A DNA stretch of 64,000 bases from Candidatus Uhrbacteria bacterium (lineage in GTDB: Bacteria > Patescibacteriota > Patescibacteriia > UBA9934): positions 3,332 through 67,331 of the forward strand of contig CAIKHN010000024.1 in NCBI GenBank assembly GCA_903827265.1, given 5' to 3'. The notes beneath the pieces were generated by a model that was not told the DNA's origin, searched no databases, and saw only the letters and a list, made by a program, of their open reading frames with translations. Position 1 is the first letter of the stretch, and each line of letters opens with the position of its first letter. Shown in pieces: positions 8,429-52,850 of the stretch. The translations under genes were made by a program, and so were the position numbers.

Positions 8429-8498
8429 TGTCTATTCTAAACCAAACACCACGCACCGGCAAGCGGTACGTGGTGATATTTGGCGAACATTCGCCATG

Positions 8499-23456: not shown

Positions 23457-23870
23457 TTATCGCAACGAAATTTTGAACATTTTCTCTGGCATCTTTACCG
23501 CGTACTCCCCCGCGCCAAGCCATGCCATACCGAGTGATGCAACGAAGAGCATGAACTCGAATTCCCAACCACCGGAGAAACCCATCTTCCATTTCATAGT
23601 GAGGATTGCGCCAACCATAATTGCCGCAAGTGCGTAGCCGGCATATTTCATGTATGCGCCAACGAGCATTGCTGCGCCACCAAGCAGTTCAACAACTCCA
23701 ACCAACACACCAAGCCATCCTGGCATGCCAAACTTCACAAACATCGCCATCACTCCAGCAACGCTCGCGAGCTTTACTGCGCCGTGCGTAATGAATACGG
23801 CTGCAAGGCCAAGGCGAATACTCAACAATCCCGCATCAGGAGTAGCCCACTTCATTGTCGTCATACACAA
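23457..23870 (-). CDS. DoxX-family membrane protein
   Basis: Four-TM small protein. The N-terminus LGLAAVFITHGAVKL is DoxX-like. Confidence 0.6.
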   Translation of the reverse strand: MCMTTMKWATPDAGLLSIRLGLAAVFITHGAVKLASVAGVMAMFVKFGMPGWLGVLVGVVELLGGAAMLVGAYMKYAGYALAAIMVGAILTMKWKMGFSGGWEFEFMLFVASLGMAWLGAGEYAVKMPEKMFKISLR

Positions 23871-23941
23871 TCAATTAATGAATACAAAGGCATGGTATCA
23901 AAAATCCCCCGTCGCTCGAAAGCGTCGGGGGATAATTGGAT

Positions 23942-24875: not shown

Positions 24876-25030
24876 AGTGAACCGTTAAATGTAAAACGAC
24901 CCCAGAAGGGCCGCAGAAATTCCTTCGAAGCCCCAAAGGAGCAAAGAAGGAGAGATTCTCGACAGGACTTACACCGAGGCTATATCGGCAACCTGTTGTC
25001 TGCGGATCTCGAGGACGGGAAAAGAGTATC
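24876..25030 (-). promoter_or_regulatory. rplJ 5' leader (possible L10 autoregulatory leader)
   Basis: Roughly 150-200 nt of non-coding sequence upstream of rplJ on its strand. Assignment is by position and established knowledge of L10(L12)4 autoregulation only; no structure was verified. Confidence 0.25.
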
Positions 25031-25035
25031 ACACG

Positions 25036-25064
25036 TTGACGATAAGTCAAATATTCGCTAAGGT
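25036..25064 (+). promoter_or_regulatory. promoter/operator module copy 1 (TTGAC-N5-GTCAA palindrome overlapping the -35)
   Basis: ttgacgataagtcaaatattcgctaaggt sits about 45 nt upstream of the 25110 gene and is a near-duplicate of the module at 25946. Confidence 0.4.
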
Positions 25065-25109
25065 TCGCGCCGACAGGAATTCACTTCCCTCCTGTTTCAA
25101 AGGATACTC

Positions 25110-25902: not shown

Positions 25903-25946
25903 CGCCGCGACCACCCTCACAGGTGGCCGCGGCGGTTCTTTTTTAT
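25903..25946 (+). terminator. intrinsic terminator
   Basis: 13-bp stem cgccgcgaccacc/ggtggccgcggcg with one mismatch, followed by ttctttttt. Confidence 0.65.
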
Positions 25947-25975
25947 TGACGAAAAGTCAAAATTTTGCTATATTT
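25946..25975 (+). promoter_or_regulatory. promoter/operator module copy 2 (TTGACG, 17 nt, TATATT; TTGAC-N5-GTCAA palindrome)
   Basis: ttgacgaaaagtcaaaattttgctatattt: -35 TTGACG, 17-nt spacer, -10 TATATT. The downstream gene has GGAGG and a GTG start. Confidence 0.5.
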
Positions 25976-32073: not shown

Positions 32074-32091
32074 AAAGATTACATTGACATC

Positions 32092-32226
32092 GAGAGCTGG
32101 TGACTCGGGTACATGTTTCTTCACTCGCCGCAACGATCGTCACGCCCGACGTCTCGCTCTGCTCGACTGTGGCTGGACGACTGTGCGGTTCGTTGCGAAA
32201 CATGCACCCTCATCACTGGCGCTCTC
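32092..32226. repeat. palindromic intergenic repeat, family A copy 1 (REPIN/MITE-like, about 135 nt)
   Basis: Arms gagagc-tgg-gtga-ctc-gggtacatgtttc … gaaacatgcaccc-tca-tcac-tggc-gctctc. It is homologous in inverted orientation to the copies at 34648 and 39652. Confidence 0.75.
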
Positions 32227-32229
32227 AAT

Positions 32230-33087
32230 TTATTTCTTCTCAAGAACAAGGATGCGTTTTATACCGTGAACAGGATCGCCGTCGTTCCAATCACCAAGCG
32301 CGTTCATAACAACGGCGTATTTGTACGTGTAATTCTCTCCACGTCGTGTACCCGGATCATTCGCAATAAAATTCTCGGTGTCATACCCGCGAATAACAAA
32401 GAGGTGATACAGCGGACCGTCGCCGCTATAAAATGGGTTTCCCAATTCCTGACCTGCAGCAAGAGCAACGACCGGTGTTCCGGCATTGATGTACGCCTTT
32501 ATTTGATCGACGGTTGGATTGTCGACGACGGTTACAGTCATTGTTCCGAAATACGACTCGGCAAATTCCCCAAGTTCTGCAGCGGTCAAACTCGGTTTAA
32601 GACCCGCTTTCGTTTCTTTATCTACCATGTCGAGCAACACCAAATCGGCAGTTTTTGGATCGATCACGCCACTCACGCCAGCGTAATATTGTGCAACCAT
32701 GTACACCGAGGCTTCCTCGCATGTGTCCTCGTGAATAACGTCCCAATTTGCGTACGGTGCTTGCGATGTAAATGGTACGGCGAGATTTTTTGATGTTGGG
32801 GGCGGTGTCTGTATAACCTCCAACGCAACTTTTGCGATAGCGGAAAGATCAGGTGACGGAGGCGTCGCTGTTACCGGTTCCGGCGTCACTTCCTGTTGCT
32901 TCACTAATTCGTTATACGTCACCGATGGAACGGTCGACGTTGGCACAACGGGGCCGCCGTGAAGACGCTCGTACGCGTACAGCCCAACACTGACAACCGC
33001 GACAACACCGAACAGATAGCCGTACCACGGCTTCCATGGCCGCTGCTTTCCGTCGAATGGATTTTTGAGTAATCGATTCATGATCAT
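32230..33087 (-). CDS. C39-like cysteine peptidase domain protein, membrane-anchored
   Basis: N-terminal TM helix, Pro/Thr-rich linker, then a block VPFTSQAPYANWDV…CEEASVYMV resembling the Peptidase_C39_2 catalytic Cys region. Confidence 0.45.
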   Translation of the reverse strand: MIMNRLLKNPFDGKQRPWKPWYGYLFGVVAVVSVGLYAYERLHGGPVVPTSTVPSVTYNELVKQQEVTPEPVTATPPSPDLSAIAKVALEVIQTPPPTSKNLAVPFTSQAPYANWDVIHEDTCEEASVYMVAQYYAGVSGVIDPKTADLVLLDMVDKETKAGLKPSLTAAELGEFAESYFGTMTVTVVDNPTVDQIKAYINAGTPVVALAAGQELGNPFYSGDGPLYHLFVIRGYDTENFIANDPGTRRGENYTYKYAVVMNALGDWNDGDPVHGIKRILVLEKK

Positions 33088-33095
33088 AAAGGTTT

Positions 33096-33221
33096 GAGAA
33101 CGCTCTAATTTTAGGCTAGTTTCGATGAACGTCGAGCAAAGTTTCCGAGGTGTACTTCTCGGTACATCGAGGAAATTTGCGATGATGTGAGTCGAAAATA
33201 GACAAAATTAGAGCGTTCTCT
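33096..33221. repeat. palindromic repeat, family B copy 1 (126 nt, perfect 17-bp terminal inverted repeats)
   Basis: Left end gagaacgctctaatttt and right end aaaattagagcgttctc are exact reverse complements. The interior is homologous to 52733-52850. Confidence 0.7.
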
Positions 33222-34596
33222 GTTTTGCCCACTGGCGAACAACCCACGTCGCCCGCACATCATCCTCGTTGTAGCGCAACACGTCATTGAGCATTTCACG
33301 GTTCCCTGTTCGCAACCAATCTTCGTACCACAGCACCGAATTCAATCCCGATGCGTCGTCATGTCGCCAACGGAATCCTAAAAACTGCGCAATGTCTTTC
33401 AAAGAATAGAACGACAATGGGAAAATCACCGCTTCACGCAAGCGCTCAAGAACGTCAACGGATCGCTCGGCGAGATCGTCGACGAATCCTTCTGGCGCGC
33501 CATGACGCTGTGCCATTAATCGGAATACATCCTGTTCGTACCATCCATAGTGGTACACCGGAATGCCCGGACGCGACTCCATGAATGCGACAAAGGCGTC
33601 CCATGCTGCTTTTTCCTCGTCCTCTTTCTCTGCGAGGAAGGTATAAAACTCGTCACCTTGCGCATGAACATCGAGTACGCCAAAGAGGTAATGCAAATCA
33701 CGAAGCGGATCAGCTTCAATATCGACGACGAGCGCGTCGTCTGTTTTTGGAAAGTCGATCTTCCCGAGAACGACAGGCTTACCGTCGATCAGCGCCTTTG
33801 CCCCAAGAATAAGAAATTGCAAACGCTCTTGCGAAATACCTGGAACGCCACGCGCTAAAAGATCGGCATTCCGCGTAGAGAGTTCCGCGACCGTCATGAT
33901 GCCTGCGTCATTGAGCGCAGTCACCTCGCTTCGCCAAATGCGATTCATGCGCGAGAGATGGTCAGCAGCAAGCGTTTCTTTTTTACATTCATCAAACCAC
34001 GGCGACTGTTTGCAATCAGACGTCAGGAAATGCGGCTCGCGGATGCCTTCAAGGATGCGCTCAATGCCGTCGAGCGTCAGTCGGAACTTCGTTTGATATT
34101 CCTCAAGAACATACGCCTCGACCGTTCCGTCTGGCCGCATGATGTACCCTTGTTTTGGTTTCATGCCTTGAATACCGCGAAGAACCTCGGCGTAAAACGC
34201 GCCTTGTACGCAATATTCGTCCTTTAAATGACGAGAACGTTTAATGTCGCACGCAACATAATAATACTCACCGAAGTTCGATTTTCCAGAAACACGCTCA
34301 AACAAATCAGGCTTCGCAACCCAATGACCGTGAATAAGAACGCCGCCATAAATGGATTGCGCACCTTGCTTCATCAATTCAAGCGTTTTCGCAAAAGCGG
34401 CATCTTCCGTCTCCGCCGAAACTTCGATCGATTTTCGTGTAACCAAAATTGCGCGCTCTTGCTCCTGAATCAAGGCGTCGTCCTGTACTCGCGCACGCAT
34501 CGGGTCGTCCCGGTGCGGCAACGTCGCGTCAAACCAGATCCACGATGGACATTTGAGATACCGATAAAAGCTCTGTTTGGTAATGCGTTTGGACAT
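33208..34596 (-). CDS. RecB-family nuclease, TM0106-like (PD-(D/E)xK N-domain plus RNase-H-like C-domain), putative
   Basis: A Y..CDIKRSRHLKDEY block (PD-ExK-like) and a C-terminal VVDIEADP…YLFGV… block (exonuclease-like). Start taken at MSKRITK (34596); the upstream extension is repeat-derived. Confidence 0.45.
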   Translation of the reverse strand: MSKRITKQSFYRYLKCPSWIWFDATLPHRDDPMRARVQDDALIQEQERAILVTRKSIEVSAETEDAAFAKTLELMKQGAQSIYGGVLIHGHWVAKPDLFERVSGKSNFGEYYYVACDIKRSRHLKDEYCVQGAFYAEVLRGIQGMKPKQGYIMRPDGTVEAYVLEEYQTKFRLTLDGIERILEGIREPHFLTSDCKQSPWFDECKKETLAADHLSRMNRIWRSEVTALNDAGIMTVAELSTRNADLLARGVPGISQERLQFLILGAKALIDGKPVVLGKIDFPKTDDALVVDIEADPLRDLHYLFGVLDVHAQGDEFYTFLAEKEDEEKAAWDAFVAFMESRPGIPVYHYGWYEQDVFRLMAQRHGAPEGFVDDLAERSVDVLERLREAVIFPLSFYSLKDIAQFLGFRWRHDDASGLNSVLWYEDWLRTGNREMLNDVLRYNEDDVRATWVVRQWAKQRTL

Positions 34597-34647
34597 AAAA
34601 ACAGTGTACAGGACTATGACGCGAAGGTGAATGCACACCAGGTATCG

Positions 34648-34781
34648 GGAGCGCCAGTGACAAGGGTGCATGTTTCGCAACGAGCAATGCACCCATCCAG
34701 CCGCAGTTGAGCAAAGCGAAACGTTGCGGCGTGATGGTGTTCACGCACAGTGAAGAAACATGTACCCGAGTCACAAGCTCC
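34648..34781. repeat. family A repeat copy 2
   Basis: Nested stems ggagc/gctcc, gtgac/gtcac and gggtgcatgtttc/gaaacatgtaccc (with G·U), plus an inner stem gccgcag…ttgcggc. Confidence 0.75.
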
Positions 34782-34822
34782 GATAAAACAAAAGGCGAGG
34801 CACAGTGGCCTCGCCTATGTTT

Positions 34823-48810: not shown

Positions 48811-51153
48811 CTATTTCTTCTCAAGCCGTTCGCGCTCGCGCCGAACCGTCGGATCATCTTCGCCGTAAATCATTCCAGCCAATGTGATGAAATTTCGTAA
48901 TGTCTTAGCGTCTGTGATACCGAACTGCGTCCCGAGAAACGTTACGCCTCTTCCATTGACATCGATCCCCTTCCCTTGGTTGCTCCGACGATACTCTGCA
49001 AACCAATCTGCTGACGTAGGATACTTTTTAAGAATCTTTGGTCTCCATCCTTCAGCGCCCTCCAAACCGATTCGTAACAGCTCCATTTTTAATAACGGGT
49101 CATCAACGCCGTAAATTTTCAAACCGAGCTCGATAAAACCTCTCAACTTTATTGGAGTCTCAAAACCAAATCGCGCAGCAATATAGTTCACACCCCTTCT
49201 GTCGATAGAAATTCTTCCACCGACGCCTCCCCCGAATCCACTAAAAGCCTGCGCCATCCATTGCGCAGAGGTTGGATATTCTTTGAGGATCAACCTTCTC
49301 CACTCGCTCTCATCACTCCTCTCCAGACGCTTCTTCTCGGCGAGCAACACTAAATCCGCTTCACCATAAATCTTTAAACCCAACTCAATAAAATTCGACA
49401 GAGAAATGCTCGTCGCACGTTCCACTGTACCGAAACGTGCAGCCAGCCACGGAAGGCCGTGTCCGACACTTTTCTGTATGCTCAATCCATATCGTTTTTC
49501 TCCTTCAGCCCTTCGATAATACCCCTCCATCCATTCACGAGATGTTGGGTAATCTTTGAGAATTATTTTTCGAAGTTCCTTCTGCAATTTTTCCGGAGTC
49601 TGTTCACTAAATTGCCTTTGCGTAGCATCGTCAGATCCGTATACCACCTCCGCAAGTGCAGCAACTAATTCTTTTCTCGTTGTTAGGGTTATGCCAAATT
49701 GGGTTGCGAGGTATCTTGGTCCACGACCTAAAACATCAAGAGCAAACCCATCATGGAAAAGATCCTTTGCGCTGGGGTATTTCTTACGAATTTCCAGACG
49801 CCATCCCTCTGGAGCTCTCTCCATGAACCGACGCTCCGCTGCAAGAAGGTCAGGATCCTGCTCTCCATAAATCCTTTTGCTCAACTGCAAAAAATTCGCA
49901 CGAACGTACGGATGCTCACGCTGATGCATCCCGAATTGTATCGCAAGAAATCCGATCCCTCTTCCATCAACAAAAAGACATCTTCCAAGCTGAGCGCTAG
50001 GATTCCCTTCCTTATCAACGGCTCTTTCATTATACGCCTTAAACCATGAAGAAAATGTTGGATACTTCTTCAAAATAGCCTTTTTCCATTCTTCGGCAGT
50101 ACGCTCTCCTGAGCGAAGTTTTTCCGCCTGAAGCACCGCGTCCTCCTTCCCGTAAATTCGTGTTCCGAGCTCGATAAAACCTATAAGTCTTCTTGGTTCC
50201 TCCGTCACACCAAATCGCGTCGCGATCGACGTGAGTTTATGTCCTAACGCCTCTATATCGCTACCTTGATTGCTGTTTTTCCGATATTCCCCCATCCAAT
50301 CTGCGGATGTAGGATATTTTCGTAAAAGTTCTGCGCGTAACACCTCTCGACCTTCTGCGCGGACGTCGATCTTCATCTTTCGTGGCGTAACAGCGCCATC
50401 AATACTGTGCGTTAATGCATGTGCAAGTTTTTCTGCCCACTGATGATTTTTTACAACCTTAACGACGCCGTTCGGAGAAATCTCAGGAAGACGCTCTTTA
50501 TTCGTCGTCAATAACGTCGAAACTGGCACTCGACCACCAAGAACGAATGTTGCTTCGCCGAACTGATTACAGACCAAGATCATCCGATCAAGTCGAGGAA
50601 TATCAATCGCAACGTAGCTCACTTCCCGCATTTTTCCCTCGGGAGCATCGCCGGTTGTGACGATAATGTCGTCAAGAAAGATGCCAAGCGACTTCAGAAC
50701 GCTCATCACTTCTTCGAGTCTCGGCTCAAAACCCGCCTTTTCAAATCTTGTCTCATCACCGACGCTGATACCTCCAACTCCAGGCGACAACAACACGCCC
50801 TGAATGTGATTCATCACGAATGCTGTGTTTGTTTCTGGATTTTCGACAGCACGATGAATAACGCGTCGCAATGATGCGTCGGCGATATCCAACACATCGT
50901 TCACTTCTCGTGGATGCTTTGGCGCGAATGAAAGCGCGGCTTCGGCGTCACGGGTTGTGATACTCGACTCCTGCAGACTCGGCGACGTAAGAATTCCTTC
51001 CTCGACTGTTTCAAGCGCACCAATGAGTTGGTGATATGAGTCTTCCGATCCGTCGTATTTTCGAGCAATATTCAGCGCTTTTGCCATGGCGTCACGATAG
51101 TCCCGCGCCTCGGGATTTTTCTTGAGTTCTCGATAATCGAAAGATTCTGTCAT
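48811..51153 (-). CDS. 780-aa protein whose C-terminal two-thirds is an array of about 75-aa tandem repeats (…FIELG.KIYGE.DP…ILKKYPTSA.W…)
   Basis: At least 7 repeat units recognisable in the translation (LRKYPTSADWMGEY, LKKYPTFSSWFKAY, RKKYPSAKDLFHDG, LKDYPTSREWMEGY, LKEYPTSAQWMAQA, LKKYPTSADWFAEY …). No family recognised. Confidence 0.5.
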   Translation of the reverse strand: MTESFDYRELKKNPEARDYRDAMAKALNIARKYDGSEDSYHQLIGALETVEEGILTSPSLQESSITTRDAEAALSFAPKHPREVNDVLDIADASLRRVIHRAVENPETNTAFVMNHIQGVLLSPGVGGISVGDETRFEKAGFEPRLEEVMSVLKSLGIFLDDIIVTTGDAPEGKMREVSYVAIDIPRLDRMILVCNQFGEATFVLGGRVPVSTLLTTNKERLPEISPNGVVKVVKNHQWAEKLAHALTHSIDGAVTPRKMKIDVRAEGREVLRAELLRKYPTSADWMGEYRKNSNQGSDIEALGHKLTSIATRFGVTEEPRRLIGFIELGTRIYGKEDAVLQAEKLRSGERTAEEWKKAILKKYPTFSSWFKAYNERAVDKEGNPSAQLGRCLFVDGRGIGFLAIQFGMHQREHPYVRANFLQLSKRIYGEQDPDLLAAERRFMERAPEGWRLEIRKKYPSAKDLFHDGFALDVLGRGPRYLATQFGITLTTRKELVAALAEVVYGSDDATQRQFSEQTPEKLQKELRKIILKDYPTSREWMEGYYRRAEGEKRYGLSIQKSVGHGLPWLAARFGTVERATSISLSNFIELGLKIYGEADLVLLAEKKRLERSDESEWRRLILKEYPTSAQWMAQAFSGFGGGVGGRISIDRRGVNYIAARFGFETPIKLRGFIELGLKIYGVDDPLLKMELLRIGLEGAEGWRPKILKKYPTSADWFAEYRRSNQGKGIDVNGRGVTFLGTQFGITDAKTLRNFITLAGMIYGEDDPTVRRERERLEKK

Positions 51154-51833: not shown

Positions 51834-52709
51834 TTATTTCTTATCGGACTTCTTTGGTTCTGGTTTTGCTTCTGCCTTTGCTGCGCCAGCCTTCATTGCA
51901 AGCTCTTCCTTGGTTGCATCGTCCAAATCGTCGACAACTGCACGTGAGCTGTCGGTCAATTTTACATCGTCCTCGGCATTCACGCGAGCAATTGCGGCTG
52001 CCTTTTCGCTTGCGATTGCTGTTGCACGAGCCTTACCCTCCTTCACCGCTACTGCAATAAGCTCAGAAACCATTTCCAAACTTCCAACTGCGTCGTCGTT
52101 TCCTGGAATAACGTAACGAATACCGTGTGGGTTCACGTTGCTGTCGACGAGCGCAACCATCGTTACTCCCATGGTTGTTGCTTCGCGAACTGCAGTCTTC
52201 TCATGACGAGCGTCCAAAATGAACAATGCGTCTGGAAGCTTGGTGAGCGTAGAAAGTCCGCCGATCTTTCCTTCAAGTTCCTCAATTTCGCGAGAGAACT
52301 GAAGCTGCTCAAGTTTGGTGTACTTCTTGAGTTCGCCCTTTGCTGACTTGTCCTTGAGGTCCAAGTAGTGACGAATCAGGCGCTGGATTTGCGCGAAGTT
52401 CGTGAGTGTTCCACCCAACCAACGCGTGTTGATGTATGGCATTCCTGCTTCCTTCGCACATGCCTCAACGATTGGCTGCGCCTGGCGTTTGGTGCCAACG
52501 AAGACGATCACGCCGCCACGAGCCGTGGTTTCGGTGACGAATGTCATTGCGCGCTCCAACTGCGTCTGTGTCTTCTCAATGTCGATGATGTGCACACCAC
52601 CGCGCTCGCCGAAAATGAATTGCTTCATTTTTGGGTGCCAGCGGCTGGACTGGTGACCGAAGTGAACACCTGCCTTAAGCATTTCAAGTAACGTAGGCAT
52701 CTTTGCCAT
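51834..52709 (-). CDS. rpsB: 30S ribosomal protein S2
   Basis: Begins MAKMPTLLEMLKAGVHFGHQSSRWHPKM; start 52709. The upstream track extension is non-coding and repeat-derived. Confidence 0.9.
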   Translation of the reverse strand: MAKMPTLLEMLKAGVHFGHQSSRWHPKMKQFIFGERGGVHIIDIEKTQTQLERAMTFVTETTARGGVIVFVGTKRQAQPIVEACAKEAGMPYINTRWLGGTLTNFAQIQRLIRHYLDLKDKSAKGELKKYTKLEQLQFSREIEELEGKIGGLSTLTKLPDALFILDARHEKTAVREATTMGVTMVALVDSNVNPHGIRYVIPGNDDAVGSLEMVSELIAVAVKEGKARATAIASEKAAAIARVNAEDDVKLTDSSRAVVDDLDDATKEELAMKAGAAKAEAKPEPKKSDKK

Positions 52710-52732
52710 ATGAATATATCGAACACAGAGCA

Positions 52733-52850
52733 TTTGAGACCAGTTTCGATGAAGGTCGAGGAAATCTCGCGAGGCGTACTTCTCGGTACGTTGAGCGAAT
52801 TTCCGATGACCTGAATCGAAAATGGGCCAAATGAATGTGTTCGTCCTTTT
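52733..52850. repeat. family B repeat copy 2 (degenerate; lacks the left terminal repeat)
   Basis: cagtttcgatgaaggtcgaggaaatctcgcgaggcgtacttctcggtacgttgagcgaatttccgatgacctgaatcgaaaatgggc aligns with the interior of copy 1. It lies 24-140 nt upstream of the rpsB start. Confidence 0.55.

Follow-up and report, generated by a model that had tools for sequence, protein, structure and literature searches.

A short stretch of DNA between a nuclease gene and a peptidase gene in a Candidatus Uhrbacteria genome raises the question of what such a sequence is: a mobile repeat that happened to land between two genes, a regulatory region serving the genes beside it, or a structured RNA in its own right. 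The DNA analyzed here (referred to as the window) is the whole 64,000-nt stretch in which this locus lies. The original prediction described a 126-nt element with perfect 17-bp inverted ends, and the perfect ends are readily found: GAGAACGCTCTAATTTT lies at 33096-33112 on the + strand and its exact reverse complement at 33204-33220, with no other match in the window beyond these two when up to three mismatches are allowed. Since the two arms end at these positions, the element (copy 1) is 125 nt long rather than 126 nt. The features of the site are as follows.

33096-33220, + strand: hairpin repeat copy 1, with 17-bp perfect arms; fold of -66.6 kcal/mol, z = -10.2; covariance-model score of 142 bits
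33096-33112, + strand: basal-stem arm of copy 1 on the peptidase side (GAGAACGCTCTAATTTT), 8 nt from the peptidase ATG at 33087
33113-33203, + strand: conserved core of copy 1, with tandem GA/GA internal loops and a GUAC/GUAC apical stem
33204-33220, + strand: basal-stem arm of copy 1 on the nuclease side; the minus strand reads (CA)G AGA ACG CTC TAA
33208-33210, - strand: TAA stop codon of the TM0106/RecB-like nuclease (PF13482), inside the nuclease-side arm of copy 1

The entire 125 nt forms one long imperfect hairpin, in which the GUAC/GUAC apical stem is closed by a U·G pair and the apical loop is UCUC (33157-33160). None of 200 shuffled sequences folded as well as the + strand, and the fold of the - strand is weaker (-48.7 kcal/mol). 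The better-folding orientation of the element, which for copy 1 is the + strand of the window, is called S throughout, and the opposite orientation A. The genes around copy 1 are all on the minus strand. As predicted, the element forms the immediate 5' flank of the C39-like peptidase gene (PF13529), which starts at 33087, 8 nt past the left arm rather than about 10 nt. A second copy lies upstream of rpsB, with the following features.

52720-52843, + strand: hairpin repeat copy 2, full length, with its S strand on the + strand and antisense to rpsB; covariance-model score of 127 bits
52720-52736, + strand: basal-stem 5' arm of copy 2 (CGAACACA gag CATTTG), pairing with 52826-52843

This copy had been read as a degenerate one at 52733-52850, starting 24 nt from rpsB. 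It is real, directly upstream of rpsB and in the same orientation as copy 1, as described, but it is full length rather than degenerate and begins 10 nt upstream of the rpsB ATG at 52709. The two copies are 77% identical over 111 nt. The basal stem of copy 2 (CGAACACA..CATTTG / CAAATG..TGTGTTCG) is unrelated in sequence to the arms of copy 1, yet it is self-complementary, so that this copy has a compensated stem of its own. It is flanked by an AAAAAGG motif and by the 10 nt ATATATTCAT that precede the rpsB ATG. An AAGGA motif directly before the element is thereby separated from the rpsB start codon, an arrangement that is probably tolerated because the hairpin folds out of the way. Gene callers run rpsB into the element, giving a 404-aa open reading frame in the window and a 310-aa one elsewhere (P0121). 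Shine-Dalgarno-like motifs precede 8 of the 53 crude gene calls in the window; a split Shine-Dalgarno sequence bridged by the hairpin was rejected as a general explanation on account of this rarity. Just downstream of tsf, the window encodes a 780-aa protein (48811-51153, - strand) with no Pfam match and an internal repeat (KKYPTS.DW...RFG... units).

An exact-pattern scan based on the conserved core was run on 185,579 species-representative genomes and returned 23 matches in 22 loci from 8 MAGs, with one to four strict matches per MAG, all in Uhrbacteria- or Patescibacteria-like loci; no match to the core pattern was found in viral contigs. A second pattern, applied in a metagenome scan, identified only seven loci, mostly from the same organisms or MAGs. 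With a covariance model built from 24 copies, 36 full-length copies were found in the sequence examined, from about 8 MAGs and often two or three within 8 kb, and all of the matches were full-length single hairpins. The model finds only the two known copies in the 64-kb window, while elsewhere there are three in 2.6 kb. The dispersed, non-coding inverted-repeat family that had been proposed is thus borne out by the census, the 36 copies coming from about 8 related MAGs, and by orthologous sites that vary in the presence of the element. The closest relatives of the nuclease and of ribosomal protein S2 belong to Patescibacteria, mostly named Candidatus Uhrbacteria. Three of the eight MAGs are labelled Gammaproteobacteria; loci L025, L028 (CAYROW01) and L029 (CAZVBP01), titled 'uncultured Gammaproteobacteria', are syntenic with the window and 79-85% identical to it, and their titles probably reflect mis-binning or mislabelling. 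Judged by public data, the range of the family does not extend beyond a small clade of Candidatus Uhrbacteria (Patescibacteria/CPR). No similarity was found by blastn in 5,426 E. coli genomes (28 Gb), phages or plasmids, and in an Rfam 15 scan of the window only a tRNA reached the gathering score, the best permissive match on the element having E = 8.8. The literature searched contained no report of repeats of the MITE, REPIN or ERIC type from Patescibacteria/CPR, and the family is apparently undescribed.

The element measures 125-128 nt. Its core of ~100 nt is conserved in sequence; in the main subfamily it contains two tandem GA/GA (G·A/A·G) internal loops that do not vary, and the apex consists of the GUAC/GUAC stem, a conserved U·G closing pair and a variable tetraloop. 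The basal stem (13-17 bp) is always paired, while its sequence varies among copies around a loose (T)AGAAC...GTTCT(A) theme only. The stretch that was modelled, which includes about 3 flanking nt, is 126-130 nt long in all copies but one, which reaches 155 nt because of a nested insertion. Two copies at L020 (389-543 and 181-346) bear nested smaller hairpins, a 24-nt insertion (CCCCGCCTCTCGCGAGAGGCGGGG) flanked by TGA and a 34-nt AT-rich hairpin flanked by CAAG; these suggest further tiny palindromic elements, for which the flanking repeats may be short target duplications. In the alignment of 36 copies, 96.2% of pair cells hold standard pairs, and compensatory double changes occur at 33 of the 48 pairs, counts that lean somewhat towards the covariance model because the alignment was fitted to its structure. 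The observed pairing was reached in 0 of 500 shuffles, and it dropped to 30-47% when the pairing partner was slid by 1-3 columns.

The structure is also strongly asymmetric between the strands. The S strand folds better than the A strand in all 36 copies, on average by 14.6 kcal/mol when RNA parameters are used and by 8.3 kcal/mol with DNA parameters (smallest differences 5.7 and 4.3). Wobbles on the S strand comprise 136 G·U cells versus 8 A·C cells (68 versus 6 in variable pairs, 23 versus 1 in the basal stem), and on the A strand the GA/GA loops would be replaced by pyrimidine mismatches, which destabilise the fold. A feature that acted only as a duplex would yield both kinds of wobble equally, which indicates that the single-stranded S form is under selection. 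Structure is evidently selected on the S strand only, whatever the direction of neighboring transcription or the sign of the GC skew. Where the flanking genes are co-directional, the element is A-sense at 10 sites and S-sense at 7-8; a further 9 sites are divergent and 4 convergent. With orthologues counted, the S orientation coincides with the G-rich strand in 15 cases and with the C-rich strand in 23. Rules that would tie S to transcription direction or to the replication strand were each considered and rejected, the orientation being mixed against neighboring genes and the relation to GC skew being 15 versus 23. In the window itself, 42 of 53 genes lie on the minus strand and the GC skew of the + strand is -0.10.

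Conservation of this kind is typical of RNA, with internal loops and apical stem fixed and the basal stem covarying freely. It is therefore worth asking whether the copies are paralogues of a structured RNA gene or element whose S-strand transcript is functional, for example as a processed hairpin RNA that binds protein. The one-sided excess of G·U over A·C (136 versus 8) and the loops that would be disrupted on the other strand both fit such an RNA, as does the comparison of orthologous copies in the window and L019, in which the core (94% identical) is better conserved than the neighboring nuclease gene (81%). Of about ten tRNA genes in the loci examined, four are flanked at one end by a copy at a distance of 0-4 nt. 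Three divergent S-oriented copies stop 1-4 nt short of the 5' end of a tRNA, a position from which RNase P cleavage would free them. However, no conserved promoter or terminator accompanies the copies, their flanks hold no consistent U-tract, and the S strand is antisense to both neighbors at at least 10 sites. There is no Rfam match, occurrence is limited to about 8 MAGs, and the copies are gained and lost among close relatives and inverted in place (see below). An RNA with a host function is the main rival explanation, fitting the conservation and the tRNA abutment but not the antisense placement or the patchiness, and on balance it is considered unlikely.

Comparison of orthologous sites reveals how unstable the placement of the element is. 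At the nuclease/peptidase junction the element is present in the window, L028, L019 and L015 and reduced to a degenerate 88-nt remnant in L006, and it is missing from L005 (nuclease 94% identical), L001 and L002, in which the two genes overlap or lie 3 nt apart (CTATGATCATG; GTCTAACATATG). Conversely, relatives carry a copy at five sites at which the window has none (near 8480-8497, 37986-38014, 38727-38739, 24976-24985 and 23855-23937). Copies occupy very short intergenic gaps in either orientation. The rpsB site is filled at the identical position in the window, L018 and L039, with TATATTCAT before the ATG common to all three alleles, and it is empty in three relatives, L040-L042 (GGTTAAAAGG|ATTTTACT ATG). 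In L018 and L039, the closest relatives, with an S2 92% identical to that of the window, the flanks are the same, but the element is inverted and its arms are different; because position and flanks are shared while orientation and arms are not, the element at this site has been inverted or replaced in place. Of the five sites empty in the window, the one at 24976-24985 lies in the rplJ upstream leader, where L023 (635-762) and L026 (3271-3398) each carry a copy within the loop of a small conserved hairpin (GCCGA/TCGGT); L001 has a different copy, 8 nt ahead of the rplJ ATG.

These comparisons bear directly on the idea that the element serves as a promoter or 5' leader for the minus-strand C39-like peptidase and rpsB genes, which the original prediction had entertained. 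Both window copies do lie 8-10 nt upstream of start codons in one orientation, and a sigma-70-like match (TCGACG, 16-nt spacer, TAAAAT) reads from copy 1 towards the peptidase gene. However, a single match is at chance level (0.6 expected), and no match was found in copy 2. Both rpsB and the peptidase gene are expressed in relatives that lack the element, L018 and L039 carry the rpsB copy the other way round at an unchanged position, and across the family orientation is mixed (10 antisense-type, 7-8 sense-type, 9 divergent and 4 convergent sites), with many copies after stop codons or between convergent genes. A promoter or leader function is thus highly improbable. As a separate observation, a promoter-like motif (TTGACG, 17-nt spacer, TATATT) recurs in the window at 25033-25065, 25943-25975 and 55566-55598, which suggests that sigma-70-type promoters of canonical form operate in this organism.

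Recruitment of the hairpin between genes as an intrinsic terminator or other transcript punctuation appears equally improbable. Folding is very stable in both orientations (-33 to -83 kcal/mol across copies), and in the window the + strand hairpin of each copy is followed by a U-run; however, a terminator scan found none at either window copy, U-runs are not conserved across copies, and short GC-rich AAAAC...GTTTT hairpins are what this genome genuinely uses as terminators. In addition, copies sit between RBS-like motifs and the start codons of essential genes. A third possibility is that the element serves the host at the level of DNA, as a cruciform or single-strand hairpin for protein binding, replication priming or recombination. 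This would accommodate both the strand asymmetry, which persists with DNA energy parameters, and the tight length of the modelled stretch (126-130 nt, the 155-nt exception being due to a nested insertion). Yet the lack of GC-skew bias means that there is none relative to replication direction either, occurrence is patchy among close relatives, and density is uneven (2 copies per 64 kb in the window versus 3 in 2.6 kb elsewhere), all of which make such a role very unlikely.

The behavior of core and stem adds a further layer to the dynamics of the family. Mean identity between copies is 48% in the basal stem and 83% in the core, and individual pairs are more extreme: the core is 99% and the stem 35% identical between L017 and L024, and 97% and 31% between window copy 2 and L023. 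Stems are kept among orthologous copies, and L015 retains the stem at the orthologous nuclease site with a core of another subfamily; at L021 (1896-2022), compared with L019, the arm type of the nuclease site is joined to a different core. The simplest account of this reshuffling would be recombination or gene conversion between copies within conserved junctions. The copies evidently behave as a non-autonomous mobile, recombining element, given their gain and loss, their occurrence in either orientation and their exchange of cores and stems. No two copies match perfectly in both core and stem, and direct signs of very recent transposition are thus lacking. Across species, orthologous copies retain the hairpin through compensatory changes. 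Their core is also better conserved than the flanking coding DNA, which points to selection or gene conversion continuing at each locus; a purely selfish relic would need neither.

How insertion sites are chosen was considered from several angles. The notion that the basal stem is, as a general rule, an inverted duplication of the target was prompted by the likeness of the nuclease-side arm to the ancestral gene end (7 of 12 nt) and of the metK-side arm in L011 to the 5' UTR of the empty site. It was rejected, since the same arm type occurs at L021:1896 with another core and the empty rplJ-leader site holds nothing like the arms of L023. Insertion into pre-existing palindromes of similar sequence was likewise discarded, as the window contains only ordinary terminators and no AGAAC...GTTCT palindromes without a core. 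There may be a preference for arm-like or core-like target sequence, because the empty spacer downstream of lexA shares 11 nt with the core. This 18-nt spacer after the lexA stop codon (ATCTTCATCGAGCAATCT, 38726-38743) is exactly where the copy of a relative is inserted. The divergent lexA/metK region nearby (38000-38060) carries tandem CGAAC motifs (CCGAACAGAAAACGAACAC).

The same comparisons clarify what the insertion did to the nuclease gene. The open reading frame (33208-34692, minus strand, 462 aa) ends in ...CAG AGA ACG CTC TAA, and its last three codons and stop (33208-33210) fall within the right arm of copy 1. In the element-bearing lineages all nuclease ends read AGA/AAA ACK YYC TAA, which is the arm consensus, and the nuclease-side arm type (GAGAACTTTCT[T/A]ATTTT...) flanks a different core at the unrelated L021:1896-2022. 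On these two grounds the final codons and stop are element sequence, as originally proposed, and in element-free relatives the nuclease stop overlaps the peptidase start (CTATGATCATG in L005). The further proposal that the insertion created the 3' end of the gene does not hold. The element-free homologues are also 462 aa long, so that the end point has not moved and the protein is neither lengthened nor shortened; what differs is the sequence of the C-terminus, which is KQRAL, KKRAV or RRQTI in the element-free homologues and KQRTL in the window. The insertion evidently re-coded the end of the nuclease gene with no change in length, and it split an ATGA stop/start overlap between the nuclease and peptidase genes. 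The re-coded end is best explained as a by-product of element insertion. The old and new ends (KQRAL versus KQRTL) are alike at 7 of 12 nt, a likeness that may be due to chance, to selection or to a preference for arm-like targets.

Other repeats and mobile-element parts occur around this locus. A second repeat family of ~135 nt has three copies in the window (34644-34784, 39650-39784 and, inverted, 32089-32224), which are 80-86% identical and fold at -63 to -78 kcal/mol; it is presumably the 'Family A' of the original prediction, and together with the hairpin repeat it brackets the nuclease and peptidase genes. A 39-nt GC-rich hairpin (CACTCGCGCCCCGGACGACCCCGGGGCGCGAAGTCGTTT) is present in two identical copies 528 nt apart (55508-55546 and 56036-56074). 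At L002:6092-7673, about 3 kb upstream of the nuclease gene, there are parts of a diversity-generating retroelement (bAvd and a fragmentary RVT_1).

Among the known repeat classes, the family resembles ERICs, MITEs and REPINs in kind, with ERIC the closest in size and layout. The ERIC or IRU sequences of Enterobacteriaceae and Vibrio are 127-bp imperfect palindromes, with details reported in Hulton 1991, Sharples & Lloyd 1990 and De Gregorio 2005. The Uhrbacteria repeat has the same layout, an intergenic imperfect palindrome of ~127 bp found in both orientations. It is similar to ERICs in length (125-128 nt here versus 126-127 nt), in being a full-length imperfect palindrome with a conserved central part, in its intergenic position, often inside operons, in either orientation and variably at orthologous sites, and in having neither coding capacity nor an identified transposase. 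It differs in that there is no sequence similarity (blastn, 5,426 E. coli genomes) and in that its host is a CPR bacterium. ERICs of Yersinia reportedly duplicate a TA target, whereas no direct duplication accompanies the Uhrbacteria hairpin repeat. ERICs are listed among the bacterial MITEs in PMC3733652.

Classical bacterial MITEs (Correia/NEMIS, RUP, Nezha) are defined in the same source (PMC3733652) as non-coding sequences of 70-300 bp with inverted termini that adjoin coding sequences and form robust hairpins able to affect neighboring genes, all of which the Uhrbacteria repeat shares; at 125-128 nt, non-coding and with 36 dispersed copies, it agrees with them in size and copy number. Its termini do not: terminal inverted repeats of 15-30 bp with a shared sequence are absent, the 13-17-bp stems being 48% identical across copies versus 83% for the core. 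No direct target-site duplication was found, the outermost bases being inverted (GA...TC, CT...AG), and the best pair of filled and empty sites (L023 versus window 24976-24985) shows at most an ambiguous AT/GAT/CGAT repeat. An automated search for a conserved flanking tetranucleotide gave nothing consistent, and no parent insertion sequence with matching ends was found among the loci examined.

REPINs are doublets of REP sequences that form hairpins and are mobilized by RAYT transposases (PMC3116915). Like the Uhrbacteria repeat, they are non-autonomous hairpins of ~100 nt made of inverted halves, show compensatory changes, and occur in clusters and with nested insertions, and folding has been proposed to take place in single-stranded DNA or mRNA (PMC3116915). 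A hairpin kept by compensatory change is found here as well (33 of 48 pairs). The layout, however, is reversed, as the ends of REPINs are highly conserved and the spacer variable (PMC3116915), whereas in the Uhrbacteria repeat the center is conserved and the ends are variable and compensated. Only 3 of the 36 copies bear a GTAG tag and 5 a CGTC/GACG tag, and no RAYT-like gene was seen beside any cluster, within about 4 kb of the copies, in 18 loci. The palindromic elements of Rickettsia (RPE), mentioned in PMC3733652, are similar in being palindromic repeats of a reduced genome that can add codons to a protein gene; they differ in that only the last three codons and stop are contributed here, with no in-frame internal insertion, and the CGTC tag is limited to 5 of 36 copies. 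The repeat is MITE/REPIN-like as a dispersed hairpin family with compensatory change, but membership in the classical MITEs or the REPINs fails because there is no conserved terminal repeat, target duplication or GTAG tag (PMC3733652, PMC3116915), and no RAYT gene was seen near the copies in the 18 loci.

On this evidence, the sequence between the nuclease and peptidase genes is a copy of a dispersed, non-coding, mobile-like hairpin repeat of ~125 nt, in which selection on the S strand would probably act through a single-stranded intermediate formed when the element is copied or moved. The selected step would be the use of this single-stranded S copy. The intermediate would most simply be single-stranded DNA, in a 'peel-and-paste' process of the IS200/IS605 or REP-RAYT type, with an RNA intermediate being less likely, although the two cannot be told apart by sequence alone. 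The candidate enzyme would be a strand-specific protein of the HUH type acting in trans, as has been proposed for REPINs, and such a mechanism would explain both the strand specificity and the missing target duplication. Several observations count against this explanation. No mobilizing enzyme, and no recurrent family of transposases, integrases or reverse transcriptases, was found among 133 ORFs in 18 non-orthologous loci. Elements of the IS200/IS605 type usually show an orientation bias relative to replication, and such a bias is not seen here (15 versus 23). The lack of a target-site duplication and of any copy pair identical throughout also weighs on this side, as does the stronger conservation of orthologous cores relative to the neighboring nuclease gene (94% versus 81%), which would require either ongoing conversion from other copies or selection at each locus. 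A more far-reaching version, which is possible but doubtful, is that this is a novel strand-specific hairpin of CPR bacteria whose ~100-nt core is copied, flipped and exchanged independently of locus-specific stems; it would do so through a single-stranded intermediate, without conventional transposase, terminal repeats or target duplication, perhaps at sites of microhomology, and would be kept folded clear of start sites.

The hairpin repeat is a genuine feature of these genomes. The family is new although its general kind is known, and no such repeats were found for this phylum in the literature searched. CPR bacteria have very small genomes with very short intergenic spacers, and a repeat that is gained, lost, inverted and reshuffled marks dynamics in a supposedly streamlined lineage. 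There are practical consequences for annotation as well, since the element re-codes the end of one gene and is partly included in rpsB by gene callers. The copies inserted 8-10 nt before the rpsB and rplJ start codons provide natural tests of how much structure is tolerated at start sites, in a genome that rarely uses Shine-Dalgarno motifs. The one-strand wobble bias is an unusually clear sign that selection acts on a single-stranded form, and it makes the choice between single-stranded DNA and RNA, as well as the question of the enzyme, directly testable in groundwater and lake datasets.
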